In this document: one piece after another, positions 2,732-21,245 of the stretch
Position numbering within the stretch: position 1 is the stretch's first letter
Layout of the letters: the number at the start of each line of letters is the position of its first letter
IMG/VR virus record: IMGVR_UViG_2531839662_000011
DNA: 23,270 nucleotides
Direction: 5' to 3' (one strand)
Source of the DNA: a virus
Taxonomy: Duplodnaviria; Heunggongvirae; Uroviricota; Caudoviricetes
Position numbers and translations under genes: made by a program
Notes under the pieces: model-generated
Told to the model about the DNA's origin: nothing
Databases searched by the model: none
What the model saw: the letters and a program-made list of their open reading frames with translations, nothing else

Positions 2732-2743
2732 ATACAAATCCCC

Positions 2744-2811
2744 TTAATTCAGGCGTAAGCCAGCCCGACGGGTTTACGCCTGTTTTAAATAACAATTAAA
2801 AACAAATTAAA
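2744..2811. repeat. direct repeat copy B with hairpin GGCGTAA(2752-2758)/TTACGCC(2774-2780)
   Basis: Fills the gap between stop of 2812-3003 gene and start of the 181-aa gene; matches copy A. Confidence 0.8.
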
Positions 2812-3217: not shown

Positions 3218-3218
3218 G

Positions 3219-3863: not shown

Positions 3864-3892
3864 AATTAAATTACCTCAGTGATATTTACAGA

Positions 3893-4108
3893 TTAATTTG
3901 TGTTATGTGCGCAGGGCGCAGCGTTTTCAGAAAAAATATTCACGCCGTTGTAGTCATTTCTCAGTGCTTCCTTGATAACATCATGCAATCCTGTTGCCAC
4001 CTGAAACTCCCTTTCAGAAGCGCCATCCTTCAAATAACTTCCTGTAATCTGGGTTAAAACCCTGCCTTTTTCATTGGTATAGATAATTACTTCCAACTTA
4101 ACCGCCAT
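3893..4108 (-). CDS. hypothetical small protein, 71 aa
   Basis: ATG 4108-4106 with AAGGAG 6 nt upstream (track start 4129 is TTG). Confidence 0.45.
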   Translation of the reverse strand: MAVKLEVIIYTNEKGRVLTQITGSYLKDGASEREFQVATGLHDVIKEALRNDYNGVNIFSENAAPCAHNTN

Positions 4109-4289
4109 GTTTTTCTCCTTTGAAATCAAACGATTTAAAAATAATTTCGTTCATAAAACAGTGAGTTTTTATGATAATGTCGGAAACCTGCTCTCCCGTG
4201 ACATCAGGCGGCAACTGATACGTCGCGACGGCTTTCTCCGGTTTACCTGGCCTGTCCAGGCTGAAAGTTAATTCAAGCTCCAGTGACAT
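4098..4289 (-). CDS. hypothetical small protein, 63 aa
   Basis: ATG 4289-4287 with GAGGGA upstream. Confidence 0.45.
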   Translation of the reverse strand: MSLELELTFSLDRPGKPEKAVATYQLPPDVTGEQVSDIIIKTHCFMNEIIFKSFDFKGEKHGG

Positions 4290-4299
4290 ATTTCATCCC

Positions 4300-4551
4300 T
4301 CAATGCATTTGTGTTTCTTGAGGAATATACGGACATCCCTGTGCCAGTTGTTTCACGTAGTCATGGTAGATTTGCAGATCAAGCCGTTCATTTCCGTGTT
4401 TCTCCTTCAGAATCGTACAAATAGCGCCAACAGTCCCCAGAGTTCTTGCCGCTTCTTCGAGTGTGGCATTGTCGCCATTTTCCACCCGAATAAGGTTATG
4501 GCACTGGTTATTACCCAGGTCGGTAAATACTATTGTTAATTTCACGCTCAC
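4300..4551 (-). CDS. hypothetical small protein, 83 aa
   Basis: GTG start 4551-4549 with GAGGAA 7 nt upstream. Confidence 0.45.
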   Translation of the reverse strand: MSVKLTIVFTDLGNNQCHNLIRVENGDNATLEEAARTLGTVGAICTILKEKHGNERLDLQIYHDYVKQLAQGCPYIPQETQMH

Positions 4552-4566
4552 TTTTAATTCCTCGTT

Positions 4567-4806
4567 TTATTGCCATACGACGGTACAGCCGTCGATACAG
4601 GACGTTTTAACCACACGACGCAGGCCGCTGAATGTCTGGATGATTTCCGTTACCGGCCATACAGGACCACCCACGGGCGGGCAGGCATAAACCACAGGTA
4701 AACGGTGATGCTGCCCCGTTACACGACCGCCAGTGGTGTGGATGGCCACACGGGCACGGGAACGGACGGCGTTAATGGTCTGCTTGTCCATCGTCTTGCT
4801 CTCCAT
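4567..4806 (-). CDS. hypothetical small protein, 79 aa, translationally coupled to B
   Basis: ATG 4806-4804 overlaps B stop TGA 4808-4806 (ATGA). Confidence 0.5.
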   Translation of the reverse strand: MESKTMDKQTINAVRSRARVAIHTTGGRVTGQHHRLPVVYACPPVGGPVWPVTEIIQTFSGLRRVVKTSCIDGCTVVWQ

Positions 4807-5699
4807 CAGTGAATTAACATTTCTGAATATTTATCAATGGCCTGCACACTGACCGGTGCATCGCTGATATCACAAATCCGGTACACACCGCGCGCCAGCT
4901 TGAACAGACGACGGGCATTACCCAGCGAACGTGTGTAAAGTGCCTCACCAATTTCCGGGTCCGCCGCTTCCGGCATCATGTCTGTGGCAATCTTGTTAAA
5001 ATCTTCCTGCGTCAGCGTATCGCCCAGGTTAAGCGCCAGCGCCACGCGGCTGTATAATTGAGCGAACTCACCACAACGGCCCTTAAGGTTAATCAGAAGG
5101 TGAGGCATACCCGCCAGGACAATCCCGATACCCGCTTTGTCATGCAGACGGCGCAATACCTCCAGTGCACGATAGGGGAGCAGTTCAGCCTCATCCACCA
5201 TCAGCAGACGACCTGACCCACGCAGTTCACGCACACAGGCATCAATCTTCTCGCGAATATCGCCGTGAACCTTTACCCCAAGCTGACGGCACAGTTCATC
5301 GAGTAACTTTCTGGCCGTATAGCCAATATCGGCTTCAATGAGCACTACATCCCGGTTTCTGGCGGCATATTCACTCAGAATCATGCTTTTACCCAGACCC
5401 GCCGCGCCATACAGCACGCAAATATCACACTCCAGATGGGCGTAGGTCAGCACCTCCAGCCCTTTGGCGGCCATGCCGGTGGTGACAAATCGCACTTTAA
5501 TACGGCGGTTGTTTTCCTTTTCCCATTCACGGGTCACAAAGGCAGAAATACGTTCTTCAATATCAGCCATATCGCCCTGATATTTGCCCTGCAAATACTG
5601 GTTGATAACGGCGCTGCTACGACCAATAGCACGGGCAACGTGGGTCTGCGTAAAGCCGCGACGGGCCATTACGTCATTTAATTGCGTAATTAAACTCAT
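4806..5699 (-). CDS. B: MuB-like DNA transposition ATPase (AAA+), 297 aa
   Basis: Walker A LYGAAGLGKS, Walker B LLMVDEAE, N-terminal HTH; immediately downstream of transposase as in Mu. Confidence 0.9.
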   Translation of the reverse strand: MSLITQLNDVMARRGFTQTHVARAIGRSSAVINQYLQGKYQGDMADIEERISAFVTREWEKENNRRIKVRFVTTGMAAKGLEVLTYAHLECDICVLYGAAGLGKSMILSEYAARNRDVVLIEADIGYTARKLLDELCRQLGVKVHGDIREKIDACVRELRGSGRLLMVDEAELLPYRALEVLRRLHDKAGIGIVLAGMPHLLINLKGRCGEFAQLYSRVALALNLGDTLTQEDFNKIATDMMPEAADPEIGEALYTRSLGNARRLFKLARGVYRICDISDAPVSVQAIDKYSEMLIH

Positions 5700-5717
5700 A
5701 ATTAAATACCTTTTAAA

Positions 5718-7532
5718 TTAACGATTATTTGTGCCGTTTTTCTTTAAATTGCGCTCACGGTCAGACACGAATAAATAAAGTTCTTCTTTTTCCTTTTTCT
5801 CCTGACGTTCCAGTCCATATCCCAGATTAAAGTCAGGCTTCTGCGTAATGGCCGGGGTAAGCTCGCGTTTAGCCTCTTCGATTTTCTGCGTGGCCCGTGC
5901 AATGCGGCCCCTGACGCGTTTCTCCAGTTTTTGTTCGATAACTGGTTTAGCGAAGGCATCAACCTTGTTACCGTTCCAGATGGCATCGCAGATATAAGAG
6001 CCATCAGCCCGCCGGACAATGACGCTGTTTGCATCATGAATATCGTAACTGACCCTGACTTCATTCCCGTGCTCTGCGGCCAGCTCATACGAGTAATAAA
6101 TATTGTTGAATAACTGAATTTCCCCGCGAAATGTTTTGCGCGTCACTTCCGGTCTGAACATTTCATGCAGTTCTTCCGGCGACAGGAAATCAATTTCAAC
6201 ATTCTGCTCTTTTATCAGTTTCCGGCGATACGCTGCCGGGCTGTAATATTCGCCATCCTCTTTGCGGGGTAGGCTGCTGTGTGGCCGGTTGTTATAGCGT
6301 CTGACCTCCAGCTCTATGGCGGCCATCAGTTGCTCAAAGGTAGGGATTTCATCCCTCGCCTTAACCTGCCGTTTTGTCAGCTCTTTCCCTTTGTGGGTGG
6401 CCTTAATGGCTGACTGCATAATCCGTTGCTGCATCATTACGGTTTCCTTGTCTGCATCCCTTGCGCAGTACGTCTGGAAACTCAGAGCCACGTCTTTGGG
6501 TATTCCTTTGTTTGCCCGTTCAATCACCCCGCGCCCCTGCGGGTTACCTGGTATCCCCGTGTGATGTTCCACACCCAGCCGGGGCAGAATCCCGGTAATA
6601 TCGGCATCAAGCACCCGGTTTTTTTCACCGCCCCCGTTATCGGAGTAATAAATCAGCGGTATCCCGTGCTGCGCCATGCCGTAACGTAACGCATCAGCAA
6701 CGGCTATCACGTTCTCCGACAGGGACAGTGACCAGCCCACAACAAAGCGTTGCCCCGCATCCATAACCAGCGTCACTTCTGGCCGGAAAATATTGCCGGT
6801 CAGGGGGTTAAACGCGGTCATTTTCATACAGTGACCATCCCCGACCCATACCGCATTAACCGGTAATGATGTCCAGTCGCGCCGCACAAAGGGATTGAGC
6901 GAACGCCAGGCTGAACCGGTGGAGCGGAAACGCTCTTTAACAATCACCGGGACGCTGCTTAACACCCGTCTTACTGCGTGAACTGAAGGCAGTGCCGCCA
7001 GCATTCCCGCATCGTTCGCGTGTTTTTCATGCCACCAGGCTGAAAACTCGCGATACGCATATTCAACGGTCGGGCGCTTCCATGAGCGATAGAACATAAA
7101 GAAATCGCTCAGCCACCAGACCTGCTCCCACGGTGTTCCCTTATGATGATCGGGAGCCAGTAACGCCAGTAACTGATTGGCATCACCGCGCGCCATCAGC
7201 CAGGCGGAATACCATTCCTGTAAACTCCCTGTACTGACGCCAGTCCGTTTACCCTGTCGGGCATTAGCAGTATTACCTGCCACAATAACACGCTCGGGCA
7301 AAGCCTCCTGGCGGATACCATCAACGATGTGTTTTATCGCCGCCGTCCTGGACATTCCTGCGTATTCACGCAGTTTATGCACTTCGGTAGCCAGCAATAT
7401 CCGCGCATCAGCGATGGCCCTTTGCTTGTCGGTCAGTGCCTGGACTTCGCGTAATGCCAGTTCCGGGCATTTGACCATCACCTCCAGTTCATCGCGAACG
7501 GTGACGTTTTTAACTGCCTTCTGCTCAACCAC
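5718..7532 (-). CDS. A: MuA-like DDE transposase, 604-codon ORF lacking the N-terminal domain because of an upstream in-frame TAG
   Basis: Long ORF with Mu transposase-like core (WVGDGHCMKM...DAGQRFVVGW...); track start 7532 is GTG with no SD; same frame as 7590-7760 fragment. Confidence 0.9.
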   Translation of the reverse strand: MVEQKAVKNVTVRDELEVMVKCPELALREVQALTDKQRAIADARILLATEVHKLREYAGMSRTAAIKHIVDGIRQEALPERVIVAGNTANARQGKRTGVSTGSLQEWYSAWLMARGDANQLLALLAPDHHKGTPWEQVWWLSDFFMFYRSWKRPTVEYAYREFSAWWHEKHANDAGMLAALPSVHAVRRVLSSVPVIVKERFRSTGSAWRSLNPFVRRDWTSLPVNAVWVGDGHCMKMTAFNPLTGNIFRPEVTLVMDAGQRFVVGWSLSLSENVIAVADALRYGMAQHGIPLIYYSDNGGGEKNRVLDADITGILPRLGVEHHTGIPGNPQGRGVIERANKGIPKDVALSFQTYCARDADKETVMMQQRIMQSAIKATHKGKELTKRQVKARDEIPTFEQLMAAIELEVRRYNNRPHSSLPRKEDGEYYSPAAYRRKLIKEQNVEIDFLSPEELHEMFRPEVTRKTFRGEIQLFNNIYYSYELAAEHGNEVRVSYDIHDANSVIVRRADGSYICDAIWNGNKVDAFAKPVIEQKLEKRVRGRIARATQKIEEAKRELTPAITQKPDFNLGYGLERQEKKEKEELYLFVSDRERNLKKNGTNNR

Positions 7533-7589
7533 TGCGGGCAGTTGCGTATCTTCCAGGACCTGATGGGTCAGGCGCTTACGTAAAACTTT

Positions 7590-7760
7590 CTACGCTTCAG
7601 CGGGCAGGCAGTCGATGTGATACTCGAATGCTTTTGTGCCTTCACGCTTGCGCTTCCATTCCGGGTGCGTCTCTGTGATCCGATTGAGCGTCCAGCGCAC
7701 CCCCTGAACTGTACCGGGCAAACCAGGAAGACCGGCCAGCTCATTGGCTGGATAAAACAT
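7590..7760 (-). pseudogene. A: MuA N-terminal DNA-binding domain fragment, 56 codons then TAG (7592-7590), in frame with transposase ORF
   Basis: ATG 7760-7758 overlaps ner stop (TAATG); MFYPANELAGLPGLPGTVQGVRW...KAFEYHIDCLPAEA* resembles Mu A N-terminus (ANLPGLPKT...KGGKAIEY...LPVEAK). Confidence 0.7.
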
Positions 7761-7996
7761 TACGCCGCCTTACTGGCATACCGGCTTGGCCAGATCTCCG
7801 CAGGTTCCACACCAATAGCATCGGCTATGATGCGTTCATATTTAGGGCATGAGCGATACAGTGCATTTTTTAAAGAGTCTTTTTTTAGACCAGCGCGTTC
7901 AGAAAGTTCACGCAATGTAAAACCTTTGGTGTGCACAGCGGCAACGATGTACTCGCGGTGCCAGTCTTTGTTCATTACTTCATTTCTAACCATCAT
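7760..7996 (-). CDS. ner: Ner-like DNA-binding regulator, 78 aa
   Basis: ATG 7996-7994 (track ORF extends upstream without support); ...IADAIGVEPAEIWPSRYASK matches Mu Ner C-terminus ...IANALETKPEVIWPSRY. Confidence 0.85.
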   Translation of the reverse strand: MMVRNEVMNKDWHREYIVAAVHTKGFTLRELSERAGLKKDSLKNALYRSCPKYERIIADAIGVEPAEIWPSRYASKAA

Positions 7997-8164
7997 TAGG
8001 TTACCCTTAAAAGTTATCCGTGCGGATAACACCGCCGTGTTATCCCTTCGGATATAAGTATTGATCCACAAATAGAAAATTACAAGCTTTCTTTTCTTAT
8101 TTTGGTGAAAAGAAAGTCTTTTTGTAGAAAGATGTTGTAAATCAATAGATTGCGAGAAAAGAAA
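7997..8164. promoter_or_regulatory. divergent promoter/operator region between ner and repressor with two palindromic operator-like sites
   Basis: GTTATCCG-TG-CGGATAAC at 8013-8030 and TGTTATCCCTTCGGATATAA at ~8037-8056 share the GTTATCC half-site. Confidence 0.5.
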
Positions 8165-8812
8165 ATGAGTAAACAAACCGCCGATGATTTTTCCTTTTCT
8201 CAGAATAGAAAAGAAAGCATTCAGGACAGAATCAAGCAACTGGTTGGCACTAGGAGTCTGCGTAAAGCTACCTCAGACTGGGGGTTGCCGTACTCGACCA
8301 TAAATAACTACTTTGAGAAAGGCACCACTCCCGGCCTAAATGTGGTCGCTACGATAGCAAAATTAGAGAATGTATCACTGGAATGGTTGGTCTACGGTGA
8401 GAGCGAGTGCGATCCAATAATAGAAAAAAAGGTACCTACAGAAGACGTTAACCGCCCAAACACAAGTATTGTCGATGAAATACTAAGGCGAGCTACTCCA
8501 GAAGATAGAGAACGTCTTATTGATATGCTGTGTTGTATTGGCATCAAAGGCGTCTTGGAACGCTTACAACAACCCACCAGGCAAGCTACGCAGGCCGACA
8601 GCGACCTGGACGAACAGGAGAATGCCATCAGAAGCCTAAACATCAGGGAATCGCTTAAAGACGCTATTTGCATGGCATTGGCTGGTAATGAAGAAACTGA
8701 CAAAGAGATTTTGCGACGCATCGAATCTCGTGCACGGACTGGGTCGCCAGGTGGTCAGACCGTTGCCACGCCGGAGCAAGAAACGAAGCCTGTAAGCAAA
8801 AAATCAGCATGA
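8165..8812 (+). CDS. prophage repressor, Xre/CI-type HTH, 215 aa
   Basis: ATG 8165 (track start 8150 is TTG); HTH signature SLRKATSDWGLPYSTINNYFEKG...LEWLVYG; divergent from ner as Mu c is. Confidence 0.7.
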   Translation: MSKQTADDFSFSQNRKESIQDRIKQLVGTRSLRKATSDWGLPYSTINNYFEKGTTPGLNVVATIAKLENVSLEWLVYGESECDPIIEKKVPTEDVNRPNTSIVDEILRRATPEDRERLIDMLCCIGIKGVLERLQQPTRQATQADSDLDEQENAIRSLNIRESLKDAICMALAGNEETDKEILRRIESRARTGSPGGQTVATPEQETKPVSKKSA

Positions 8813-9050
8813 ACGCCTACTGCCTGGTGGGCGCATGCTGCCAACTAACTAGCGACATCCACAACAAGACCAATACAGAAGACGGATAAGAAAGGAACAA
8901 ATCAAGCAAGGTTAAAACGGGTTTTAAAATCTTTTAAAAGGCGATCGCTTTCCTGCACCACCAGATCAAAGTAGTCCAGAATAAAGCGTAAAAAAAGGCA
9001 CTTTTGGTCATTTCTTTCAAAACGATCCAGAATCGGTGAAATCTCTCACA
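8813..9050 (-). other. candidate Mu-like left end (attL region)
   Basis: - strand reads 5'-TGTGAGAGATTTCACCGATTC... from 9050 inward, resembling Mu end TGTATTGATTCAC...; tail-fibre homology of flanking phage stops here. Confidence 0.4.
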
Positions 9051-9399
9051 TCCCGCACCACTCAAGGCTTGCAGGTTCGTCCAGGCTGCTCGGACTCAGT
9101 CCAGAATTGATCACCACCCCACACATCCCCAGTTCACGAAGGGTTTTACCGGGGTATGATTTACAGTCAATCACAATATCCCCGCTGATGAAGCCCTCCT
9201 CCACCGCACCGTCGGAAAAGGGTTCCTGCCCGAATTCGCCGTACAACGATGTCATTGCTGCCATTTCATCCGGCGTGGATGGCAATGCACGCCCGCCCCC
9301 GTCACCAAGCAGAACATGCCGGACGGTCACGGTTTGCCCGTTCTGATATGCTGCTTCAATTTCTGCAGCGCCGGACGTTGTCAGAATCAGTCCATTCAT
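9046..9399 (-). pseudogene. H: tail-fibre gene (P2 gpH / Mu gpS type), N-terminal 117 codons only
   Basis: N-terminus ...LTTSGAAEIEAA...VLLGDGGG...LRELG resembles P2 H ITTAGAAKLAAA...AVGDGGG...MRELG; stop TGA 9048-9046 falls inside Mu-like end. Confidence 0.65.
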
Positions 9400-9986
9400 A
9401 CACCTGCCTCACTCTGCCCGCCTGTGGGCACTGTCTTTGTTGTCACACCGGTACTTCTGATTTTTTCTGTCGCCATCACATAGCCGTAACCAAATCCACG
9501 CCCTGTGCTGTTCCCGTAAACGTGAATACTGAACCAGCTGCGCAGATTTTTGGCACGGAGCACCGCATGCTTCAGATCCTGATGATCATTCATCAGCACC
9601 GGTAAATCTTTCTGCTCCACGTTCAGACGGAAGGTATACGGCTCCCCGGGTGGGGTCTGCTCATACCACTCAACAATCTGCGACCGGAAGGGACTGTCAG
9701 CCAGCGATGCCATCAGCGCCGCTTTAGTCCCTCTGTGGCGGTGGATGTATGCAGCACGTTTTATCGCAGACCGTTTTTCCGCCTCCGTCCAGTGTTCATT
9801 CCAGGTGTCCACCGCCATTTCCCAGGCCAGCCATGGCAGCAATTCAGCAGGACATAAATCGGGATTTTTGACATAGCGGATCAGACATACTGCGATTTCC
9901 GCCAGCATATCACCGGCGGTACTGTCCACCACCCGCTCTGCCCGGCTGGCACTGACCGGCAGTATGCTCCTGATATCGTCATTCAT
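9396..9986 (-). CDS. I: baseplate/tail protein, P2 gpI-like, 196 aa
   Basis: NPDLCPAELLPWLAWEMAVDTWNEHW matches P2 I NPDTCPANLLPWLAWAFSVDRWDEKW; ATG 9986-9984. Confidence 0.85.
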   Translation of the reverse strand: MNDDIRSILPVSASRAERVVDSTAGDMLAEIAVCLIRYVKNPDLCPAELLPWLAWEMAVDTWNEHWTEAEKRSAIKRAAYIHRHRGTKAALMASLADSPFRSQIVEWYEQTPPGEPYTFRLNVEQKDLPVLMNDHQDLKHAVLRAKNLRSWFSIHVYGNSTGRGFGYGYVMATEKIRSTGVTTKTVPTGGQSEAGV

Positions 9987-10893
9987 CAGTTGTCTCCACC
10001 TTATTCAGCGTTACCTTGCGGCACCACGGTGCCTGCCCCATCGCAGGAACGATATCACTGCCCGGAGAGGTCAGATTCACCGTAATCACCCCGGTCTGGT
10101 GAAGGGCACCATCCATGCCAGAACGGGATGCCACCGAGCCAATCAGGTGGACGCTGTCAGTGTATAACTGCAGCGCCTTGCGGGCATTTGCCATAACCAG
10201 TTCACCATCCAGTCCGTAGGGAATATGAATATCCGCCACCACATCGTAGGGAATAATTTCTGCCGTCCGGACACTGACAAAATCCGTCAGGGGACGGGTT
10301 TCATCATCACAGACTGATGCTGCCACCTTATCCAGCAGGGGTTGTGATGCAGTGCCATTTCCGGACCGGGATAACACATAAAGAAAAACACGCCCTTCCT
10401 GTGAATGCGTTTCCGGCCCGTAAGCCTTCACATCCAGCACATCAGGATCAGCACTTTGCGCAAAATAGTGGTACGCATTTTTCGCGCCGGCGGTGCTCAG
10501 CCGTGCCCATGACAACTGGATACGTTCGCGAAAAGCGTCATCATCTTCATACACCGCAGGCGTGGGCGGAATGGTGCTGTCATCTGCCGGGGTAATCACC
10601 AGACGCTGCACCTGAAAATTCGCACCAATCTGATCCAGGTCGTTCCTCCGGGCACTCGCAAGCAATACACCCCGGACAGCATCATTGACCTGCTGGCGCA
10701 TCAGCGCCACGCGAAAAGCCAGCGCCTCTGCCCATTTATACGCCGGATCGGATTCCACCAGGGCCGAAAACAACGTGTCCAGCTCCTGATACTTCGTCAC
10801 TATCTGAGTGACCAGCACAGCAGTGTCCGGCACCTCCACCGCATCCGGTACCGGTATCGCAGACAGATCAATAATTGCCTGAGACGTTGCCAA
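9979..10893 (-). CDS. J: baseplate assembly protein, P2 gpJ-like, 304 aa
   Basis: IIDLSAIPVPDAVE...LVITPADDSTIPPTPAV matches P2 J; TTG start with GAGGAG upstream. Confidence 0.9.
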   Translation of the reverse strand: MATSQAIIDLSAIPVPDAVEVPDTAVLVTQIVTKYQELDTLFSALVESDPAYKWAEALAFRVALMRQQVNDAVRGVLLASARRNDLDQIGANFQVQRLVITPADDSTIPPTPAVYEDDDAFRERIQLSWARLSTAGAKNAYHYFAQSADPDVLDVKAYGPETHSQEGRVFLYVLSRSGNGTASQPLLDKVAASVCDDETRPLTDFVSVRTAEIIPYDVVADIHIPYGLDGELVMANARKALQLYTDSVHLIGSVASRSGMDGALHQTGVITVNLTSPGSDIVPAMGQAPWCRKVTLNKVETTDE

Positions 10894-11224
10894 TTTTTAT
10901 CTCCTCGAGTCGAATCGTATCCTGAGTTTCGTTATTCACCCCGACAAGCGTCAGCCACGCGCTTCCTTCTCCTGTCCACGTCACTTCCACCCGCCGGAGA
11001 GTCAGGCGGGGTTCCCAGCGTTCAAGGGCGGTTACCGTTTCGCGAACAATTCTCACCCGCGTGAAATCATCCTGTGGGTTATCAAGCAGACTGAAAAGTC
11101 TGCTGCCGTATTCCCTGAGCAGGACCCGGCTGCCGGCCGGTGTTGACAAAATATCAGTGACGGACTGGCGCAGATGTTCGTTACCGTGCAGATATCTGCC
11201 GGTGGCTGAATCAATACCAATCAT
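10868..11224 (-). CDS. W: baseplate protein, P2 gpW-like (gp25-like), 118 aa
   Basis: Size, position between V and J, GPW/gp25-like sequence; ATG 11224-11222. Confidence 0.85.
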   Translation of the reverse strand: MIGIDSATGRYLHGNEHLRQSVTDILSTPAGSRVLLREYGSRLFSLLDNPQDDFTRVRIVRETVTALERWEPRLTLRRVEVTWTGEGSAWLTLVGVNNETQDTIRLEEIKIGNVSGNY

Positions 11225-11257
11225 GTTGTTTATTCCGGAAAAAGAACTGAAAGGAGA

Positions 11258-11881
11258 TTACATTTGCTGACCAGGCTGTCCGGTGCTGCCACCACTGTCG
11301 CCCCGGTGATTGTGACCGTTATAGACAATTCTGATTTGACTCATCGTTCCGTGATAATCAGAAACCTCACCACCGACCATCAGATCCGCCTTAACCACCG
11401 CCTCAGCATTCATGGTTGCTTTACCCTGTACGGTCAGGGTATCTGTGATTTCTACCGGACCGTCCAGGGTTCCCCTGCCGGTAATTTTATAGCTGCCGCC
11501 TTCAGCCAGCGTGATGGACAGGGCATTAGCCTGACGGTCGTAACGGATTTCCGTTCCGGTATCAAACAAAATAACATGTTCGTATTCACTGCCCTCAGGG
11601 ACAGGAATGGCGTCAATATTGGCCCCCGGATACACCCGACCGTTACGCAAATCGCCCGCCTCCGATATCACTGTAACGGCATCTCCGGGAGCCGGGTAAT
11701 TACTGACCTGCATGTAGCGCCCGGACTGTACCTGAATCCAGGGCAACGGAGGCGAAAGCACATCCCCGATATCCACCCGAACCATCACCGGGCTACCCGG
11801 GATCACCTCGTCCACCACGCCGCGACGGACCATGTCCGCCACCCTGCGGCGTAACTCTGCCACTTCATCTGCCAGACTCAT
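11258..11881 (-). CDS. V: baseplate spike protein, P2 gpV-like, 207 aa
   Basis: C-terminus YNGHNHRGDSGGSTGQP matches P2 V HTHKHPGDSGGTTGSP; in-frame ATG 11881-11879 (track ORF over-extended). Confidence 0.85.
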   Translation of the reverse strand: MSLADEVAELRRRVADMVRRGVVDEVIPGSPVMVRVDIGDVLSPPLPWIQVQSGRYMQVSNYPAPGDAVTVISEAGDLRNGRVYPGANIDAIPVPEGSEYEHVILFDTGTEIRYDRQANALSITLAEGGSYKITGRGTLDGPVEITDTLTVQGKATMNAEAVVKADLMVGGEVSDYHGTMSQIRIVYNGHNHRGDSGGSTGQPGQQM

Positions 11882-13129: not shown

Positions 13130-13534
13130 TCATGCTCTCTGACTGCCATAACGTTTACTCGGTCGTTCCGGTGCAGCAGGTGTATTTCTCCCGGGCTCTC
13201 CACGCGCAAGGGTGATGGTAATCACCCCCTGACCCGCAGCGCCTGACTCATCCCAGCCGGGATCGACTACCTGATAGGGTTCGCCGTGGATCATGACCCT
13301 GTCATATTTTTTCAGACCGGCGGCCCATGCGCTCCGGGTAAATAACACGGGCGCAGTATCACGAATTTCGCCGCTGCCAGTGTTCATCCCGGTGTTATCT
13401 GCCGGGGCATCAAAAACGGCACGGATTTTTCTTTCCGTGCCGCCCGGATATATGCTGATTTCCGTCCCCATCGTATCCAGGATGATGTCATCCGCATCAC
13501 TCATGGCCTGATCGAACAGATTATCGAACATCAT
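13130..13534 (-). CDS. FII: head-tail connector protein, lambda gpFII-like
   Basis: MFDNLFDQAMSDADD matches lambda FII MADFDNLFDAAIARADE; ATG 13534 overlaps FI stop. Confidence 0.8.
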   Translation of the reverse strand: MMFDNLFDQAMSDADDIILDTMGTEISIYPGGTERKIRAVFDAPADNTGMNTGSGEIRDTAPVLFTRSAWAAGLKKYDRVMIHGEPYQVVDPGWDESGAAGQGVITITLARGEPGRNTPAAPERPSKRYGSQRA

Positions 13535-13899
13535 CACTCCCGGATTTTTTCTGCCAGACCGTCTGCCAGCAACGCGGGAACTGTGGCTTCATTAACCAGC
13601 ACAACACTGGAGGCCCGGGCAAACATCAACATTTTTCCCGTCACAGCATCACAGGCTGGCATATGCGCCGTTTTCAGCATACGCACCCGGGCGAGTCCCT
13701 GCTCAGAATGCATTCCGTCGCCGGATGCATCGTTGCCCACCTCTTCCTTCCCCGTCTCCTCCCCATCGAATCCAGCGGCCTCCTCCTCCCATTCCGCCAG
13801 ACGCTGCTCAAGATCGGCTTTTGAACCTGAAATATCTGCTTCACGCCCCAGAATCACTGCCAGTTCCTGCAAACGTTCAGTCATCTGCTCTTTTGTCAT
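13534..13899 (-). CDS. FI: DNA-packaging accessory protein, lambda gpFI-like, 121 aa
   Basis: In-frame ATG 13899-13897 with GGGAGAG SD; follows E as in lambda (track ORF over-extended into E). Confidence 0.65.
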   Translation of the reverse strand: MTKEQMTERLQELAVILGREADISGSKADLEQRLAEWEEEAAGFDGEETGKEEVGNDASGDGMHSEQGLARVRMLKTAHMPACDAVTGKMLMFARASSVVLVNEATVPALLADGLAEKIRE

Positions 13900-13916
13900 C
13901 ACATCTCTCCCGTGCG

Positions 13917-13944
13917 CTAAAGAAAAAGGCGGGAATATCCCGCC
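13917..13944 (-). terminator. intrinsic terminator/attenuator just after major capsid gene
   Basis: Hairpin GGCGGGA-ATA-TCCCGCC (13928-13944) followed on - strand by TTTTTCTTT, 6 nt after E stop. Confidence 0.4.
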
Positions 13945-13949
13945 CTGTC

Positions 13950-14978
13950 TTATTTCACCTGAACCACCACAAACGCATCCGGATCCGGCAGCACCATCAA
14001 CGGCGCAGACTGCGTCATTGTATATTCGCAACCAGGATCCCCCACTTCCTCCCAGTGTTTCGGATAACGAATCGCAGAGGTGATCCCTTCACTCAGCGCC
14101 TGATTATCCTGGATTGCGCCATAGCAACGGACGCCCTCCGCCTGAGTGTTTCCCAGAATCAGTGTACCTTCCGGCAGATAACGCTGTTCATCCCCGTTTT
14201 CGTCAACATACGTTGTCTTCGCCACCACGACAGCCAGATCGCCGTACCAGCCCTTAAAGGAAACCACGGAACCCAGGTCTTTCAGTGCGGTTTCCAGCTC
14301 AGATTTGGAGCCACGGCGGGTATCCAGTTTTTCACGGAACAGTTTAAAACCGTTCAGCATACGCCAGACCGTGCCGTCCATAATCGCGATATTGATGGTA
14401 CCGGAAGCAAAATCGCAGTACGCATCAAGATCATGCGTCGGATCAAAGGTGTCAGCATTCTGCTTTGACCATTCGCGTCCGCCAGCCTGCGTAATGTTAT
14501 TGGCGGCAGAACGCCCAAAATCCACTTCCACCGTCTCAAACTGCTCGCCGCTCATAGTGTATTTACCCTGCAGAACAGCACTGACTGCCTGCATTTCTTC
14601 CACCTGCACAATCGCCTGCTCTTCCTGTTTCAGGTTGTCCGTCAGAATACGCAGACGGCGGTAAGCCGGGTCATTAAGGCGGGCCGGATCTTCCCCCGGA
14701 AGACGTTCTACAGCCTGCTGATAATCAAAGCGGTGTTTTGGTTTTACATAACCGGGACGTAACACGCGGGTTTCACCACCACGGCTGCGCAGCACTTTGC
14801 CTGACACCACCGGAGACACATACGCCGCAACCGGTGTTTTGCCGGTAATTTTATCCAGCATGACTTCCTGAGTATGGAAAGTGATCGTGCGACGAAAGAA
14901 CAGCTCAAGAAACAGCGCACGAAATTTCACTTTCTGCTCGGTGTACCCGAGTAACTGACGCGTGGTAAATAACCCCAT
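13950..14978 (-). CDS. E: major capsid protein, lambda gpE-like, 342 aa
   Basis: Collinear similarity to lambda E (e.g. RSRGGETRVLRPGYVKPKH, GNTQAEGVRCYGAIQD, MTQSAPLMVLPDPDAFVVVQ). Confidence 0.95.
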   Translation of the reverse strand: MGLFTTRQLLGYTEQKVKFRALFLELFFRRTITFHTQEVMLDKITGKTPVAAYVSPVVSGKVLRSRGGETRVLRPGYVKPKHRFDYQQAVERLPGEDPARLNDPAYRRLRILTDNLKQEEQAIVQVEEMQAVSAVLQGKYTMSGEQFETVEVDFGRSAANNITQAGGREWSKQNADTFDPTHDLDAYCDFASGTINIAIMDGTVWRMLNGFKLFREKLDTRRGSKSELETALKDLGSVVSFKGWYGDLAVVVAKTTYVDENGDEQRYLPEGTLILGNTQAEGVRCYGAIQDNQALSEGITSAIRYPKHWEEVGDPGCEYTMTQSAPLMVLPDPDAFVVVQVK

Positions 14979-15001
14979 AATTTATATTCCTTCAGAAACA
15001 C

Positions 15002-15030
15002 AAACGGGCCGCATCGCGACCCGTTTTTTC
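15002..15030. other. stem-loop in D-E intergenic region
   Basis: AAACGGG-(11 nt)-CCCGTTT with T-run on + side and U-rich tract on - side. Confidence 0.3.
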
Positions 15031-15047
15031 AGTTAATCACTTCACCA

Positions 15048-15383
15048 TCAGGCGTGGCTGATGGCACTTCCCACAAATGCGTTGGCTTTTTTCACCGCAT
15101 CCACCGAACCAGGCCAGACCAGCGACTCAGTGGCAAACGTACCGCTTTTGTAGTACGTCAGCATGGGCTCGGTCCCGGCAAGCGCCAGAGCCAGCACACC
15201 CACAGCCGTTCCGGCTTTCTGACCATCCCAGACAACCAGTTTTCCGGTGGCGTCATCCACCATCAGTGGCGTCAGTGCAGGTGTGGCAGCACTGATACCA
15301 CTGGTGGCTGTTGCGGTATGCGCCGGATCGCTTCCGGCAAAAATGCGCGCATCTGCACGCTTTTCCGTGGTGGTTTTAATCAT
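15048..15383 (-). CDS. D: head decoration protein, lambda gpD-like, 111 aa
   Basis: GSDPAHTATA...TPLM...KLVVWDG...YKSGTF matches lambda D; ATG with AGGAGG upstream. Confidence 0.85.
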   Translation of the reverse strand: MIKTTTEKRADARIFAGSDPAHTATATSGISAATPALTPLMVDDATGKLVVWDGQKAGTAVGVLALALAGTEPMLTYYKSGTFATESLVWPGSVDAVKKANAFVGSAISHA

Positions 15384-15421
15384 TTTTCAGCCTCCTGATT
15401 TATCTGAATTCCGGATATCGC

Positions 15422-16132
15422 TTACGGCATACTCATCAGCAGGTCTTCCTCACCGCGCCCGGCAGTTCCGCCACCGGAAACCGCACTGGCAGCATGCTGT
15501 GCCATAAAGCGATCAAAAAGTGTTTCCTGTGACGGTTGCGATGCCGCCGGCGCGGCTGCCAGCAGCGTTTTCGCCTGCGCCACCGTCATTCCCGGTTGTT
15601 CTGTCAGTGCCTGTGCAAGTTGCTCGCGCCCTTTTGCCTCCGGCAGCGCCATAATCTGATCGCCGACACTTGCAGAACCAGCAACCGGTGCCGCCGCCAG
15701 TAACGTTTTGGCCTGGTCAACGGTCATTCCCGGCTGTTCAGCCAGCGCCTGCGCGAGTTGTTCACGCCCTTTTGCTTCCGGTAACGCCATAATCTGATCG
15801 CCTGTGCCTGCAGCACCAGCAGCAGGGGCTGCCGCCAGAAACGCTTTCGCCTGCTCCACCGTCATCCCCGGCTGACCTGCCAGCATCTGTGCCAGTTGCT
15901 CACGCCCCTTTGCTTCCGGCAGCCCCATAATCTGATCGCCCGTGCTGTCAGTACCGGCAACCGGCGCAGCTGCAAGCAACGTTTTCGCCTGCTCAACCGT
16001 CATTCCTGGCTGACCTGCCAGCATTTGCGCCAGTTGCTCGCGCCCTTTCGCCTCCTGACAATTCAGGATCCCCATCACGCGCTGATTTTCCTGGGCCACC
16101 GCTTCAGCAACGGTGAGATTTTTAACAGTCAT
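15422..16132 (-). CDS. nu3: Nu3-like scaffold protein from in-frame internal start within C
   Basis: In-frame ATG 16132-16130 preceded by AAGGAG at 6 nt; analogous to lambda Nu3 nested in C. Confidence 0.4.
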   Translation of the reverse strand: MTVKNLTVAEAVAQENQRVMGILNCQEAKGREQLAQMLAGQPGMTVEQAKTLLAAAPVAGTDSTGDQIMGLPEAKGREQLAQMLAGQPGMTVEQAKAFLAAAPAAGAAGTGDQIMALPEAKGREQLAQALAEQPGMTVDQAKTLLAAAPVAGSASVGDQIMALPEAKGREQLAQALTEQPGMTVAQAKTLLAAAPAASQPSQETLFDRFMAQHAASAVSGGGTAGRGEEDLLMSMP

Positions 16133-17038
16133 TGCATTCTCCTTCGTAACAGAGTCATTCAGTACAGAAACCATCACTTCAACGGCATCTGCAGCATTAA
16201 TCAGTTGATCAGCCAGGCCTGCATCAATGCCTGCCTGACCGTCATAAACGGCAGCCTCGGTATTCATCACCGCCTCTGAACTCAGCCCCGTATAAAGCGC
16301 CACCTTGTCGACAAACATCCGGCGGGCCTCATCAATACGGCGCTGAAAATCTGCACGCACACCTGCCGGCAATGCCTGAATACTGTTGCCGTCAACCTTA
16401 TGCTGCCCGGAGTAAATCAGCGTGATGTCCACCCCTTCCTGTGCCAGTTGTTTCTCGTAACTGGTGTGCGCCATCATCACGCCAATCGAACCAATTTTTG
16501 CCGTCTGCGTGACCAGCCGACGGGTACAGGCTGCCGCCAGCAACATGGCGGCTGAACAGGCCATGTCATTACACAGCGCCCACACGGGCTTCTGTTCCCG
16601 CAGACGGTAAATCATGTCAGCACAGTCAAACGCCCCGGCAGCCTGACCGCCCGGGCTGTCGATATCCAGCAAAATGCCGCGCACATCCGGATCATTCACC
16701 GCCATCTGAAGGCGGGCCGTCAGGCCGTCATAGCCAGTCATGCCGGAGTAAGGCCGCAGGGTACCCAGTTTATGCACCAGCGTGCCGCTCACCGGAAGAA
16801 TGGCGATGCCATTCTTCACCTGGTAACTCTTTGCCGGACGCTGACCGCCCGCCATATAGTCAGTCACAGCCAGTTGCATACCATCAGCATCAAGCTGAAC
16901 AGCCTGCTGAGGAACGGCAAGGCTGCCGGCTCCCATCTCTTTACCCAGCGCGCAAAAGAAAACCCGCGCATAGGCGGGTTCCAGTAAAAGCGGCTCATTA
17001 AATGCCATGGCGGCAATATGCGATAAATTACGACGCAT
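15422..17038 (-). CDS. C: head maturation protease/scaffold, lambda gpC-like (S49/ClpP-like), 538 aa
   Basis: Position after portal, protease-like N-terminal half, C-terminal scaffold region with tandem repeats. Confidence 0.9.
   Translation of the reverse strand: MRRNLSHIAAMAFNEPLLLEPAYARVFFCALGKEMGAGSLAVPQQAVQLDADGMQLAVTDYMAGGQRPAKSYQVKNGIAILPVSGTLVHKLGTLRPYSGMTGYDGLTARLQMAVNDPDVRGILLDIDSPGGQAAGAFDCADMIYRLREQKPVWALCNDMACSAAMLLAAACTRRLVTQTAKIGSIGVMMAHTSYEKQLAQEGVDITLIYSGQHKVDGNSIQALPAGVRADFQRRIDEARRMFVDKVALYTGLSSEAVMNTEAAVYDGQAGIDAGLADQLINAADAVEVMVSVLNDSVTKENAMTVKNLTVAEAVAQENQRVMGILNCQEAKGREQLAQMLAGQPGMTVEQAKTLLAAAPVAGTDSTGDQIMGLPEAKGREQLAQMLAGQPGMTVEQAKAFLAAAPAAGAAGTGDQIMALPEAKGREQLAQALAEQPGMTVDQAKTLLAAAPVAGSASVGDQIMALPEAKGREQLAQALTEQPGMTVAQAKTLLAAAPAASQPSQETLFDRFMAQHAASAVSGGGTAGRGEEDLLMSMP
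15530..16054 (-). repeat. tandem in-frame repeat, ~4 copies of 138 bp (46 aa), in scaffold-coding region
   Basis: Unit EAKGREQLAQ(M/A)LA(G/E)QPGMTV(E/D)QAK..LAAAP.AG....GDQIM.LP; in-frame MTV ATG codons at 15589, 15727, 15865, 16003. Confidence 0.85.
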
Positions 17039-18599
17039 CGACTTTTTCTCCCGTTGTCTGTCGGATCTGCTGCTGAAACGTGTCCTTTATCCAGATGGGG
17101 CGGGGAAGACCCGCTGCCTGTCGCTCCTGGCTTTCACGCAGTTGCTGGCGGAAAATCTCCTGATAGTCATCGCCCATCAGGGCCAGCTCTTTCTCATACG
17201 TGCTTAAACCACCTTCAATACGCATCACCGCTTCCTGCACTTCCTTAAGGCCATCAATCGCCATGCGACCGGCACCAATCCACTCGGCACGACACCATCC
17301 GGAACGGGCCTCCCAGAATGAAAAACGGGATTTCGGCGGGCGGATCACACCGCGAATAAGTGCTTCCTCCAGCCAGCAGGCAAACATCTGTGATGCCAGT
17401 CGACTGGCCACAAATTTTCGTTTGCCCATAAAATACCGCCACGACTCATTGGCGGATGCCCTGGCACTGGAATAACTGACCTGTGAATAATCACGGGAAA
17501 GCTGTTCATAGGACACCCCCAGTCCGGCAGCGATGTAACGTAACAGCGCCTTTTCCAGTTCAGAGAAACCATTATCTGCATTCTGCGCTGTCTGCAGATT
17601 CAGTGAATCCCCCGGATAAAGATGCGGAATACGGACCCCGCCCAGCTTTACCGTATTGGTGGCGTAATAACGCGCGTAGCCTTTCATGATGGTGTTCAGG
17701 GGATTTTTACCGCCATCTCCCACCCCGGCGATATATTCAAATGCTTTTTCCGAATCCAGCGTGGATTCAATCGTCGCGGCATACATCGCCCGCACCACCG
17801 CCGACTGCAGTTGCGTGGCCTGCAGTGTGTCGAGCATCTTGAGGCGCTCCATGACAGAATAAAACTGGTTGGCCCCGCGCGTCTGTCCGTCCTCCTGCGG
17901 CTGAAACACATGGATCATTCCCGGTCGCCCGGAGGGCAGCGTCGCCGCAATCCGCGTCCAGTTGCTGACACCGTAACCGGGCCAGTCATCTTCCTGAACA
18001 TGGTAGGCCAGTGCTTTTCCGTACCGGTTGATTTCCACCCCGGCACGCATAAAACGATCGCCGGTACCATAACCGGGTGTACTGACACGTTTCGGGCTGA
18101 TGGTTTTGAATTTCGTCCGGAATAATGACGTGGATTCCGTATCCCATACGGGCTGGACAAAAATTTCACCGTTAAATGTATGAACGCCCACCCCTTCACG
18201 AATAAATTCGGTAAACGAGCGACGCCCCTCCACATCCATCGAACCAAACACCGGATCGCAGAATTCCATCCACGCCGCCTCCACATCTTCAATAAAGGCA
18301 TGTGAATCGGCTTCCGACATCCCCAGCCAGCGCCAGTTGGGCCGGTAACTCAGACGAAACATGTGTCCGACGATATGGTCTTTATGAATTTCAACGGCGT
18401 TTGCGGCAATACCGTTATTGCGGACCAGATCATCCGCACGGGCGTTACCCAGCTGAATGGAAGGTAAGAGCGCCACGTCGGCACTTTCCGGTGCAGGCAG
18501 CCATTCCGCAAGCTGCCCGCCAAATCCGGTACCCCCTCCGGAATACCCCATACTCTGCCGCAGTGGCTGCCCGTGAAGATCCACCAGTTCCCCGTTCAC
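17028..18599 (-). CDS. B: portal protein, lambda gpB-like, 523 aa
   Basis: GYSGGGTGFGGQL...GNARADDLVRNNG matches lambda B; GTG start overlapping W stop. Confidence 0.95.
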   Translation of the reverse strand: MNGELVDLHGQPLRQSMGYSGGGTGFGGQLAEWLPAPESADVALLPSIQLGNARADDLVRNNGIAANAVEIHKDHIVGHMFRLSYRPNWRWLGMSEADSHAFIEDVEAAWMEFCDPVFGSMDVEGRRSFTEFIREGVGVHTFNGEIFVQPVWDTESTSLFRTKFKTISPKRVSTPGYGTGDRFMRAGVEINRYGKALAYHVQEDDWPGYGVSNWTRIAATLPSGRPGMIHVFQPQEDGQTRGANQFYSVMERLKMLDTLQATQLQSAVVRAMYAATIESTLDSEKAFEYIAGVGDGGKNPLNTIMKGYARYYATNTVKLGGVRIPHLYPGDSLNLQTAQNADNGFSELEKALLRYIAAGLGVSYEQLSRDYSQVSYSSARASANESWRYFMGKRKFVASRLASQMFACWLEEALIRGVIRPPKSRFSFWEARSGWCRAEWIGAGRMAIDGLKEVQEAVMRIEGGLSTYEKELALMGDDYQEIFRQQLRESQERQAAGLPRPIWIKDTFQQQIRQTTGEKVDAS

Positions 18600-18805
18600 A
18601 GCCCCACTCCTGCCGGGCCGCGACGCCGTCCGGATACGCCCAGCGCACTTTCCAGCTCTTCAATATACTGACGCAGTTCACCAATCGTCGCCCGCGAATA
18701 CTGAACCTGACGCCCGTCCTTGCTGACGGAAACCACAGCACGTCCGATCATCAGTTCATGTAATGCCCGGCGGGCATCACAAAGCATTTCATGCGTATAA
18801 ACCAT
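18596..18805 (-). CDS. W: head-tail joining protein, lambda gpW-like, 69 aa
   Basis: ARRALHELM.G...VSKDGRQVQY...EL.QYIEELE...RRRGPAG matches lambda W; GGAGGA SD. Confidence 0.85.
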   Translation of the reverse strand: MVYTHEMLCDARRALHELMIGRAVVSVSKDGRQVQYSRATIGELRQYIEELESALGVSGRRRGPAGVGL

Positions 18806-18808
18806 TCT

Positions 18809-20725
18809 TTATCCTCCACTCAGTGCAGCCGCGATTTCTTCCAGACTCATCTCATCGTCGTCCTGCTCATCTCTTCTGGCACGGGCCAGTGCTTCAAGAT
18901 CCAGCTGCCACCGCTGAACTGAAATACGCAGGGCAGCATAGGCATATACCAGGCAGTCGAGGGCTTCGTTGCGTCGCCCTTTTTTATCCCACAGCAGTTT
19001 CACCCTGCCATTAACCACCTTCTCCACCAGCTCTTCCGCCACGATCTGACGCGCCTCTTCTTCCGAAAAAATGTCGGGGTTATCAGGAAAACGGAAGGTG
19101 TACGGGGCGGCTTCACTGGCAGAGACCACTGGCAGGGCAAAACGGGCGTACAGCATTTCCTTGACGGTATCGGAGCCCACCTCACACAAAAACACACCAC
19201 GCTGGTTGCGCTTTTTGGGCATGGTGATCACCGGCTTGCCGTACACCGATGCCCCTTTTATGGGAAGCACAAAAAAAGTGCCGTGTTTCCTTGAACGCTG
19301 ATACACAATGTCCTGGTCGATACCACCGGTATCCCAGCAGACACGGGAAATGGAAATTTCAGTACCGTCAGCATGACGATATTTTTTCCGGATCACCGTA
19401 TCAACACGTTTAAGGGTGTCCTCGTCTTCCGGTCGCCCCATGATAATTTGCTTATCAATCAGAAAGGCTTCTTCGCCGGGAGCCCAGCCCCAGACATAAA
19501 TTTCATAGCGATCTTTCTGGGAGTCGATCCCGGCGGTCAGGTAAACCACCCGCAGGGGAACCTGCGCACCATAGTGGCAGACCTTTTCCAGTAACAACTC
19601 AAAACTCAGCTTTTCTGCCACAGCCTCTTCATAGGGCTCCCCGAGCGTGGTGTTAATAAACGTCTTGACGCCGTTCGGATCCTTCAGCGCATCCAGCCAG
19701 TCATAAACAATCTGTACCCAGGTGGTGAACGGACTATACGCCGTCCAGATGTGGAAAGTGACGGAGCGCGGCGGTGGCATCTCCTCATCGCCGGCGCTGT
19801 AAAATGCCAGGCCGTCGCGCGTCCACATCCCGGTATTGTCACAAATCCAGCGCCCGTCGGTCTGGTCAAGTTCCGACTGCCGGATCACACAGCCATTATG
19901 TTCACACAGGTAATACACCGTTTCCGGTTTACCCTTCTCCCATTTCAGGCCAAATGGCGTCGCATCATCGCCAAACTTCAGATACTGGGCCTCCCCGCAA
20001 TGAGGGCAAGGGACATAAAACCGCATGAAATGCGCTGATTCATTTGCGGCTTTCTCAATCTGGCAGGAGCCTTTAATTTTTGGCGTTGAGCCACGTATGG
20101 ATTTAGGCCATACCGAGCCTTCGATACGCTTATCGCCAAGCAGCGTCGGCGAACCTTCTTTTTCCACATCCGGTTCAAACGAGGAGAGTTCGTCATAGCA
20201 GACCACATCCACAGATTTTTCACGGTAGTTTTTAGCAGCGGCGCCGCCAAGGCACCAGAAACCCACACCGGAGGAAAAACGCTTCAGGGTGAGTGTATTA
20301 TCGCGGTGCTTTCTTCCGAACCATGGAGCCAGCTCCAGCAATGCAGGAACATCCCTGATCGTTGGCTCAACATGAGATTTCATGAAATCTTCTGCAGCAG
20401 AATCTGTTGGCTGAAAAAGCAGACTGTTACGGGATTTATGCTCAATAAAATAAGCCTCCACCCCCAACAGCATTTTGGTGTAACCAACGCGCGCCGATTT
20501 AATCAGATTAACGGTGCGGATCCGGTCATTTCCCATGCTGTTCATAATGGCAAGCTGAAACGGCAGGGTTTCCCATTGTCCGGGAGTGTATGAAGATTCT
20601 TTCGGCAGATAATAATGTTGATCAGCCCACTGAACCGTCGTCAGTGGAACCGGAATATTGAGAGATAAAAGCCCTGTAGCTATCGCACCGGCTGCATTAG
20701 CTGCCTTCTGTGCGTCTGAAATCAT
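18809..20725 (-). CDS. A: terminase large subunit, lambda gpA-like
   Basis: [56 protein letters not shown] match lambda A; start taken at ATG 20725 (track 20767 also possible). Confidence 0.95.
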
Positions 20726-21245
20726 CAATCCACCTGCCCACGTTTTCACCGGCTTTAGCTGCAACATTGGAGGCTTTCGCGATTTCAGTTTTCACCACAT
20801 CAAGGTGTGACGGTGAAATATCCGGATATTTACGCTGTAATGTCAGCGGCACACGTACAAGTATCCCCGAAATCTCCTGTGCCACACGTTGCAGAATGAA
20901 GGTAAACAATTCTGTTTCCAGCACCAGCCCTTCTTCACGGGCATTTTTCAGCTCCTGTGCGTCAGCCTGTGCTTTGGTTAACCGGTAGCGTTCATAGTCA
21001 ATGGTGCCGGGTTGTAAATCTGATTCTGCAGTCGCACGCAAATCTTCCAGTTCTTTGCGGAGCTTTTCGTTTTCGATATCTTTTTCCCGCTGCGCATACC
21101 ACTCAATGGCTTCTGCAGTATTGAACATGGCTTCGATACCTTTGCCTCCCCCCGACAAAACTCTCAGCCCCTGACTTTGCCAGCCAGTGATTGTTCTGAC
21201 ATCGCACTCAAAAATTTCCGCCAGTTTCTTTTTGTTAACCTTCAC
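20697..21245 (-). CDS. nu1: terminase small subunit, lambda Nu1-like, 182 aa
   Basis: [10 protein letters not shown]...RTI..WQ.QG..VL.GGGKG...ENEKLR.E.E.LR...[26 protein letters not shown] matches lambda Nu1; GTG start. Confidence 0.9.

Follow-up and report, generated by a model that had tools for sequence, protein, structure and literature searches.

Tandem copies of the Nu3 core in the protease/scaffold gene of a prophage with a lambda-type head module

A four-unit array in a C/Nu3-type gene

The stretch of DNA analysed here, 23,270 nucleotides (nt) of a caudoviricete prophage (IMG/VR record IMGVR_UViG_2531839662_000011; the whole stretch is called the window), carries a gene of the lambda C/Nu3 type. 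In phage lambda, gene C, which encodes the prohead protease gpC, overlaps in frame with Nu3, the gene of a transient scaffold. The corresponding open reading frame (ORF) of the window codes for 538 amino acids (aa) and contains four in-frame tandem units of 138 nt (46 aa) at 15503-16054 on the minus strand. Tandem Repeats Finder, applied to the whole window, reported a single array (15547-16055; period 138 nt, 3.7 copies, 80% matches, no indels, score 596), and a second repeat search of the window returned 237-nt copies spaced 138 nt apart. The coordinates of the units and of all other features are collected in Table 1.

The consensus of the unit is EAKGREQLAQ.LA.QPGMTV.QAK.LLAAAP, followed by a linker of 15 aa that ends in GDQIMALP. 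In pairwise comparison, units 1-3 are 79-81% identical in nt and 80-85% identical in aa, the four cores are 81-94% identical to one another, and the longest exact run common to units of the array is at most 18 nt. Only the first 31-33 residues of unit 4, which make up the core, are retained, and the rest of this unit has diverged and continues into a unique C-terminal tail, which is present in one copy in every allele, whatever the number of units. The array had been noticed before from the letters alone; this original prediction gave four units, the consensus peptide and the MTV ATG codons at 15589, 15727, 15865 and 16003, and all of these were recovered by repeat search and translation.

The assignment of the gene as a nested protease/scaffold gene of the lambda type, also made in the original prediction, is supported by the Pfam match to Peptidase S49 (2e-33), by the match of the 538-aa protein to phrog_53 'head maturation protease' (2e-216) and by the neighbouring head genes. 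The C-terminal part of the protein matched phrog_8399 'head scaffolding protein' and phrog_8940 (lambda Nu3 family, 'capsid assembly protein'), each in four stretches. In an alignment with lambda gpC the protein is collinear and close over aa 1-290, and the 'CSA' serine segment and 'HKVDGN' are kept; for the catalytic residues within the S49 domain we assume the assignment given in the literature. The gene had been estimated to be about 100 codons longer than lambda C, and with 538 compared to 439 aa the difference is indeed 99 codons, which corresponds to three extra units (138 aa) minus a shorter linker between protease and scaffold.

The gene is placed between the portal gene and the genes for the decoration and major capsid proteins, and the neighbourhood of terminase genes, portal, D-like, E-like and FI could be identified by PHROG and RefSeq as a lambda-type head module. 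The compared stretches of the window are 100% identical to the chromosome of Escherichia coli ETEC1738 (NZ_CP122768.1), on which the window maps to 3144068-3167337. RefSeq names the gene of this genome only 'S49 family peptidase'.

Table 1. Features of the array, its gene and the adjoining head genes. Positions are those of the window; HMM, hidden Markov model; CDS, coding sequence; SD, Shine-Dalgarno sequence.
Feature	Position	Strand	Basis or remark
Repeat unit 1	aa 329-374, 15917-16054	-	Self-comparison of the protein; unit HMM 73.4 bits
Repeat unit 2	aa 375-420, 15779-15916	-	Self-comparison of the protein; unit HMM 71.9 bits
Repeat unit 3	aa 421-466, 15641-15778	-	Self-comparison of the protein; unit HMM 72.6 bits
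Repeat unit 4	aa 467-512, 15503-15640	-	Core aa 467-497 = 15548-15640; unit HMM 69.6 bits
C-terminal tail, single copy	15425-15547	-	…QETLFDRFMAQH…EEDLLMSMP; alignments with lambda and phage 21
SD AAGGAG	16139-16144	-	6 nt upstream of internal ATG 16132 (Met303)
Putative nested Nu3-like scaffold CDS, 236 aa	15422-16132	-	SD and ATG, position of phage 21 gene 6, PHROG scaffold matches
Leader of the nested product	16055-16132	-	Includes first helix (…AEAVAQENQRVMGILNCQ) completing module 1
gpC-like prohead protease/scaffold CDS, 538 aa	15422-17038	-	ORF translation, Pfam, PHROG; RefSeq WP_001253880.1 'S49 family peptidase'
Peptidase S49 domain, aa 146-289	16172-16603	-	Pfam PF01343 2e-33, 116 bits (cut-off 24.9)
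Portal gene (lambda B-like)	17028-18599	-	Directly upstream, overlaps start of the C-like gene; phrog_21 1e-179, RefSeq
Head decoration gene (lambda D-like)	15048-15383	-	Directly downstream; phrog_49 4e-27, RefSeq
Major capsid protein gene (lambda E-like), presumed client of the scaffold	13950-14978	-	phrog_2353, phrog_29, RefSeq

The unit corresponds to the Nu3 core and is constrained as protein

An HMM of the unit was built from the four window cores and compared with related proteins. It gave four matches in the window protein (70-73 bits), a single one in lambda gpC (aa 369-399, EAHGREEQARVLAETPGMTVKTARRILAAAP, 37.6 bits) and three in phage 21 gp5. All three phage 21 matches coincide with repeat_region features of GenBank record M81255, labelled 'Tri1 box', 'Tri box' and 'Tri3 box' and described there as 'function unknown; putative'. 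We take M81255 to be the record that accompanies Smith and Feiss (Gene, 1993). From the match in lambda gpC and those in the Tri boxes it is concluded that the unit is the conserved Nu3 core and that tandem copies of it are already on record; having been annotated in phage 21 for decades, tandem Nu3-core repeats are not new in kind. Open-access literature searches returned nothing on Tri boxes or on repeat variation in Nu3-type scaffolds, and the genome announcement of phage 21 leaves the repeats unmentioned.

The duplicated segment consists of the whole core plus the short helix that precedes it, 'GDQIMALP' ahead of units 2-4 being the shortened counterpart of 'NQRVMGILNCQ' ahead of unit 1. 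The leader helix that completes module 1 is homologous to 'AAVAAENSRIMGILNCE' of lambda, and a distant alphaproteobacterial S49 protease carries 'GEQILDLPEAKGRD…'.

Genes 5/6 of phage 21 (M81255, OL657228) share with the window the order portal, protease/scaffold, shp (D-like) and capsid gene, an S49 protease part that is 73% identical in nt, the position of the nested scaffold start signal and the tandem arrangement of the unit. However, phage 21 has three units at a spacing of 50 and 47 aa with cores that are 58-61% identical, whereas the window has four at an exact period of 46 aa. All window cores are closest to Tri1 (65-81%, compared to 52-65% for Tri2 and Tri3), and no positional match to Tri1, Tri2 and Tri3 could be observed. 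Therefore, the array was amplified or homogenised separately from that of phage 21. Three tandem units, at a spacing of ∼46-49 aa, are also found in the S49 peptidases of Gifsy-1 and other Salmonella and E. coli prophages, which are 45-65% identical to the window scaffold and have units more diverged from each other.

Lambda C/Nu3 has in common with the window gene the S49 domain, a nested in-frame scaffold (putative in the window), the core motif (ENSRIMGILNCEEAHGREEQARVLAETPGMTVKTARRILAAAP), the C-terminal tail and the neighbours B, D and E, but it has one module, preceded by a longer Ser/Thr/Ala-rich linker. The tails of the three proteins could be aligned (FDRFM…DLLMSMP in the window, ALDRLMQGAP…NDLLNTPV in lambda, AMFEHFMANH…KMLMAMP in phage 21). 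The annotated start of lambda Nu3 lies ∼64 codons further upstream, within the protease part, and the Met in question is an Ile in the window.

A scan of all in-frame starts of the window gene identified ATG 16132 as the only one with a 6-nt SD match; a weaker alternative is Met241 (ATG 16318), with GAGG 8 nt upstream. ATG 16132 aligns with the annotated start and ribosome binding site of phage 21 gene 6 (MPQLTATEAAAQENQRVMGILTCQEAKGRE in phage 21, MTVKNLTVAEAVAQENQRVMGILNCQEAKGRE in the window), and the ATG together with (A/C)AGGAG or GAGGAGG is kept in all relatives examined, phage 21 included. Thus, the internal in-frame start with a strong SD that the original prediction had pointed out is present and conserved. 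The nested product is predicted to have 236 aa, a molecular mass of ∼24 kDa and an isoelectric point of 4.7, and the repeats would, as anticipated, form most of this Nu3-like scaffold, namely 184 of its 236 residues (78%).

Constraint on the units was assessed by comparing them with each other within the window. In the 31-codon core, synonymous divergence (dS) is saturated (0.7-1.8) and non-synonymous divergence (dN) is 0.03-0.12, which results in dN/dS ratios of 0.02-0.15, and in the linkers dN/dS is 0.34-0.54. Each pair of cores shows 11-16.5 synonymous compared to 2-8 non-synonymous differences, in line with the earlier remark that the differences are mostly silent or conservative. The low dN/dS of the cores therefore indicates that constraint acts on the protein frame of the minus strand and on every copy.

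Selection of the repeat as DNA or RNA, for instance as regulatory sites, an antisense gene or a structured RNA, would be in agreement with the plus-strand ORFs that overlap the region (15896-16279) and with the CII-site pattern matches that the phage 21 record marks within gene 6. However, the overwhelming majority of the substitutions between units are synonymous in the minus-strand frame, the units recur at intervals of exactly 46 codons, and the indels of relatives come in multiples of 3. A scan of the window against Rfam gave no match. Because of the synonymous excess in the minus frame and the Rfam result, selection at the level of DNA, RNA or an antisense gene was rejected and is regarded as highly improbable. 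The 'CII binding site' patterns of the phage 21 record (OL657228; ttgynnnnnnttgy) lie at 1088-1101 and 1322-1335, antisense in the scaffold gene, and apparently are pattern matches only.

Over the whole window, the prophage is a mosaic of modules. Its head and packaging module (∼13130-21245) is of the lambda type and comprises small and large terminase, W-like, portal, C/Nu3, D-like, E-like, FI and head-tail joining genes. It directly abuts a contractile-tail module of the P2 type (∼128-11880) with genes for baseplate V/W/J/I, tail fibre and assembly protein, sheath, tube, tape measure, gpX and the late control protein gpD; this tail module is a difference from phage 21.

Copy number of the unit in relatives

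To relate the array to its relatives, loci were collected from IMG/VR, using patterns derived from the query, so that the sample is biased to close relatives. Four units were found in 46 of the 59 loci, three in 8, two in 4 and five in one; two of the loci, L051 (counted under three) and L053 (counted under two), end at a contig end and their counts are lower bounds. The period of 46 aa is common to all loci of this sub-lineage. Loci of one sub-lineage form an allelic series of the type A-C (L054/L055), A-B-C (L050), A-B-B-C (L032-L035) and A-B-B-B-C (L041), in which the B units are identical in DNA, with 99.6-100% identity over 900 nt of upstream and 1400 nt of downstream flank.

Complete genomes were searched with the flanks only (four-unit span 1352 nt), and 108 of 5426 complete E. 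coli genomes matched, with 58 evaluable among the 60 matches listed. Among these 58, four units were found in 53, six of them with a 9-nt deletion, five units in four (STEC005, STEC307, STEC313 and STEC367) and three units in one (PapRG-04-4). The lengths of the annotated CDSs agree with these counts (584 aa in STEC005, 492 aa in PapRG-04-4). An array peculiar to this strain is thus not what is found. The other view that the original prediction had allowed for, that all homologues carry the same four units, holds largely, as four is the common number, but not wholly, as two, three and five copies also occur. Four units are the usual state of this prophage lineage, and the array is dynamic.

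Many homologues in the databases are 'partial' proteins that end at contig ends in or near the array. This indicates that the repeat breaks short-read assemblies and that copy numbers from draft genomes need caution, and it would speak for the count of four being an assembly artefact, as the original prediction had considered. However, the complete genome of ETEC1738 contains an identical array, the units differ by ∼20% in nt with such short exact runs in common that ordinary reads can resolve them, and four units predominate in both the complete genomes listed and the IMG/VR loci. The probability of an artefact is considered negligible. Taken with the homology to the Tri boxes, it is almost certain that the array is a real and polymorphic coding amplification of the Nu3 core.

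Traces of the process by which the number changes could be observed in single alleles. In STEC005 (L063, NZ_CP041437.1 2733633-2735387), units 1-3 have identical 3' halves (∼75 nt) and different 5' halves, the kind of trace left by a recent duplication or gene conversion within the array, and L045 looks like the window array from which unit 2 was deleted, with a hybrid of units 1 and 2 at the junction. The recombinational instability that had been suggested for the region is in agreement with the two to five copies among close relatives. For the window allele itself this holds less well: since no exact run common to its units is longer than 18 nt, it should recombine less readily than alleles with identical units and is probably among the more stable ones. 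A single Chi octamer is found in the window, at 19024 in complement orientation within the large-terminase gene; the array and its surroundings contain none.

In a wider search, the unit profile was run against 1.84 billion proteins, which resulted in 144 representatives of clusters at 50% identity; one unit was found in 133 of these, two in 6 and three in 2. No phage isolate in INPHARED covers at least 80% of the four-unit scaffold, and its isolates carry either three units (phage 21, Gifsy-1 and the PhiR12 group) or, in the lambda group, one. Arrays of four and five copies, their exact periodicity and the natural polymorphism of two to five copies with identical capsid genes appear to be undescribed in the literature searched.

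Two further proteins stand apart. In Bradyrhizobium (L066 5001-5600; GCA_023073215.1, JADPJC010000168.1), a stand-alone protein of 199 aa has two Nu3-core modules and lacks the protease domain; it is encoded in a compact, integrase-bearing element beside a 296-aa ORF that matches no family and a tape-measure-like gene. This element may be satellite-like and encode its own scaffold, and its genomic context gave no clue to the function of the two-module protein. An unrelated metagenomic protein of 331 aa (P0248) has about nine tandem 13-aa 'PGMTVxELKDLLGR' repeats that partly match helix 3 of the unit profile, which is probably a convergent, low-complexity similarity.

A link between copy number and the capsid genes was considered and rejected, as the protease part, the decoration gene and about the first two-thirds of the capsid gene are 99.6-100% identical across alleles with two to five copies. 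The same near-identity of the protease and D/E flanks would be expected if the extra modules were a tolerated and nearly neutral filler produced by unequal recombination, in which one module and the tail suffice and valency brings no benefit; that lambda works with one module, and that single-module proteins make up most of the cluster representatives, points in the same direction. On the other hand, every core of the window is under strong purifying selection despite saturated synonymous divergence, as would not be expected of mere filler, four copies are the prevailing number among prophages with flanks that have diverged by up to ∼9-13% in nt, and no one-copy allele was seen in this prophage lineage. 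Extra modules as nearly neutral filler are therefore regarded as unlikely.

Predicted fold and possible role of the modules

The 236-aa product was modelled with AlphaFold2 (44 aligned homologues), which resulted in a mean predicted local distance difference test score (pLDDT) of 71 and a predicted template modelling score (pTM) of 0.27, with a repeating pattern of short helix, helix, loop and helix and linkers of low confidence. Given this pTM, no fixed arrangement between the modules is predicted. For the isolated first module (aa 303-362, 60 aa) pLDDT was 82 and pTM 0.60, with helices at 8-23, 32-39 and 46-55 and a pLDDT of ∼85 in the leader helix (8-23). In these models each unit is predicted to be a small three-helix bundle. 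A module starts with the short helix (…DQIMALP, or …RVMGILNCQ in copy 1), which is followed by the invariant loop EAKGRE, helix 2 (QLAQMLA), the loop GQPGMT and helix 3 (VEQAKTLLAAAP), and successive modules are linked by stretches rich in Ala, Gly, Ser and Thr. Lambda gpNu3 itself has reportedly been called intrinsically disordered, in the title of a 2011 paper by Medina et al.

Comparison of the 236-aa sequence with all PDB chains gave matches at chance level only (bL12, E 0.11), and no model of Pfam or NCBIfam covers the scaffold part. Sub-threshold matches to DUF732, T2SSK, the HU N-terminus and YmfL were rejected as helix-hairpin look-alikes. A Foldseek search of the whole scaffold model against PDB, with albumins and CAMP factors on top at E >5, was likewise set aside, as it is meaningless at a pTM of 0.27. 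The likeness to the tandem three-helix-bundle binding modules of staphylococcal protein A, GA and Ebh is one of analogy only.

In each module, helices 2 and 3 are predicted to make up a helix-loop-helix with conserved Lys and Arg, and an interaction of lambda Nu3 with E was seen by yeast two-hybrid (PMC3224144). Both would fit modules that each act as a capsid-binding helix-turn-helix, as in the C-terminal domain of the P22 scaffolding protein, so that one chain could hold up to four E-like subunits. However, no similarity in sequence or fold to the solved coat-binding helix-turn-helix of P22-type scaffolding proteins, nor to any other solved scaffold domain, could be identified, the conserved tail at the extreme C-terminus competes with the modules as the candidate site, and a valency of two to five with the same capsid gene is hard to square with a fixed scaffold:coat stoichiometry. 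A P22-like role of each module is therefore held to be improbable.

The reading preferred here is that of a coding amplification of the Nu3 core, which would give a multivalent scaffold and protease-targeting domain that changes by unequal recombination; for this reading as a whole we estimate a probability of roughly 0.65. Two products would carry the array, the 538-aa S49 protease and the 236-aa scaffold translated from the nested start. Their shared C-terminal part would co-assemble protease and scaffold in the procapsid, as in lambda C/Nu3, so that the protease would be carried into the assembling shell and then degrade the scaffold. With four modules instead of the one of lambda, the scaffold may be a flexible multivalent chain, with an identical contact surface on every module for the partners that Nu3 is reported to have in lambda. 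These reported interactions are Nu3-Nu3, Nu3-C (the protease), Nu3-E (the capsid protein) and Nu3-B (the portal) (PMC3224144). This mechanism of multivalent contacts is put forward tentatively, at somewhat less than even odds. In this reading the array evolves by unequal recombination or slippage together with gene conversion between units.

A similar logic is found in herpesviruses. In UL26/UL26.5, the protease shares a C-terminal scaffold domain with an abundant nested scaffold, by which it is targeted into the procapsid, and the protease families are unrelated. To our knowledge, tandem amplification of a scaffold core module has not been described in systems of the UL26/UL26.5 type.

Several points weigh against the preferred reading. 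The conserved single-copy tail is, by analogy, an equally good or better candidate for the contact with the capsid protein, in which case the modules might have a different function or be chiefly spacers. The occurrence of two to five modules in alleles with identical capsid genes argues that valency is not critical and that the number of modules does not set the geometry. In RefSeq the nested CDS is not annotated, whereas the records of lambda and phage 21 annotate theirs, and translation from ATG 16132 is deduced from the start signal and its conservation. Finally, several loci of the allelic series are probably from draft assemblies, in which identical 138-nt units could be collapsed or skipped. 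A stronger form of the preferred reading, in which the number of modules sets the valency of the scaffold and protease-targeting domain and is tuned by selection, is considered rather doubtful. In it, arrays of identical units would change fast between two and five copies, whereas long-lived alleles such as that of the window would have gathered synonymous differences that suppress unequal recombination and thereby fix a favoured number of four.

The current understanding of head assembly is unchanged by these results, which extend a feature already annotated in phage 21. For annotation, they mean that the RefSeq entry 'S49 family peptidase' omits the nested scaffold and that the repeat fragments short-read assemblies, leaving many 'partial' proteins in the databases. 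In the literature searched, no function has been reported for the conserved Nu3 core of the textbook lambda-type head assembly. In this lineage the Nu3 core is seen as an independent module of which each copy is kept by selection, and the finding of two to five copies next to one and the same set of capsid, decoration and portal-proximal protease genes offers a handle for experiments. If valency is indeed tuned, the natural series of two-, three-, four- and five-unit alleles with identical capsid genes would be a ready-made test of the role of the Nu3 core.

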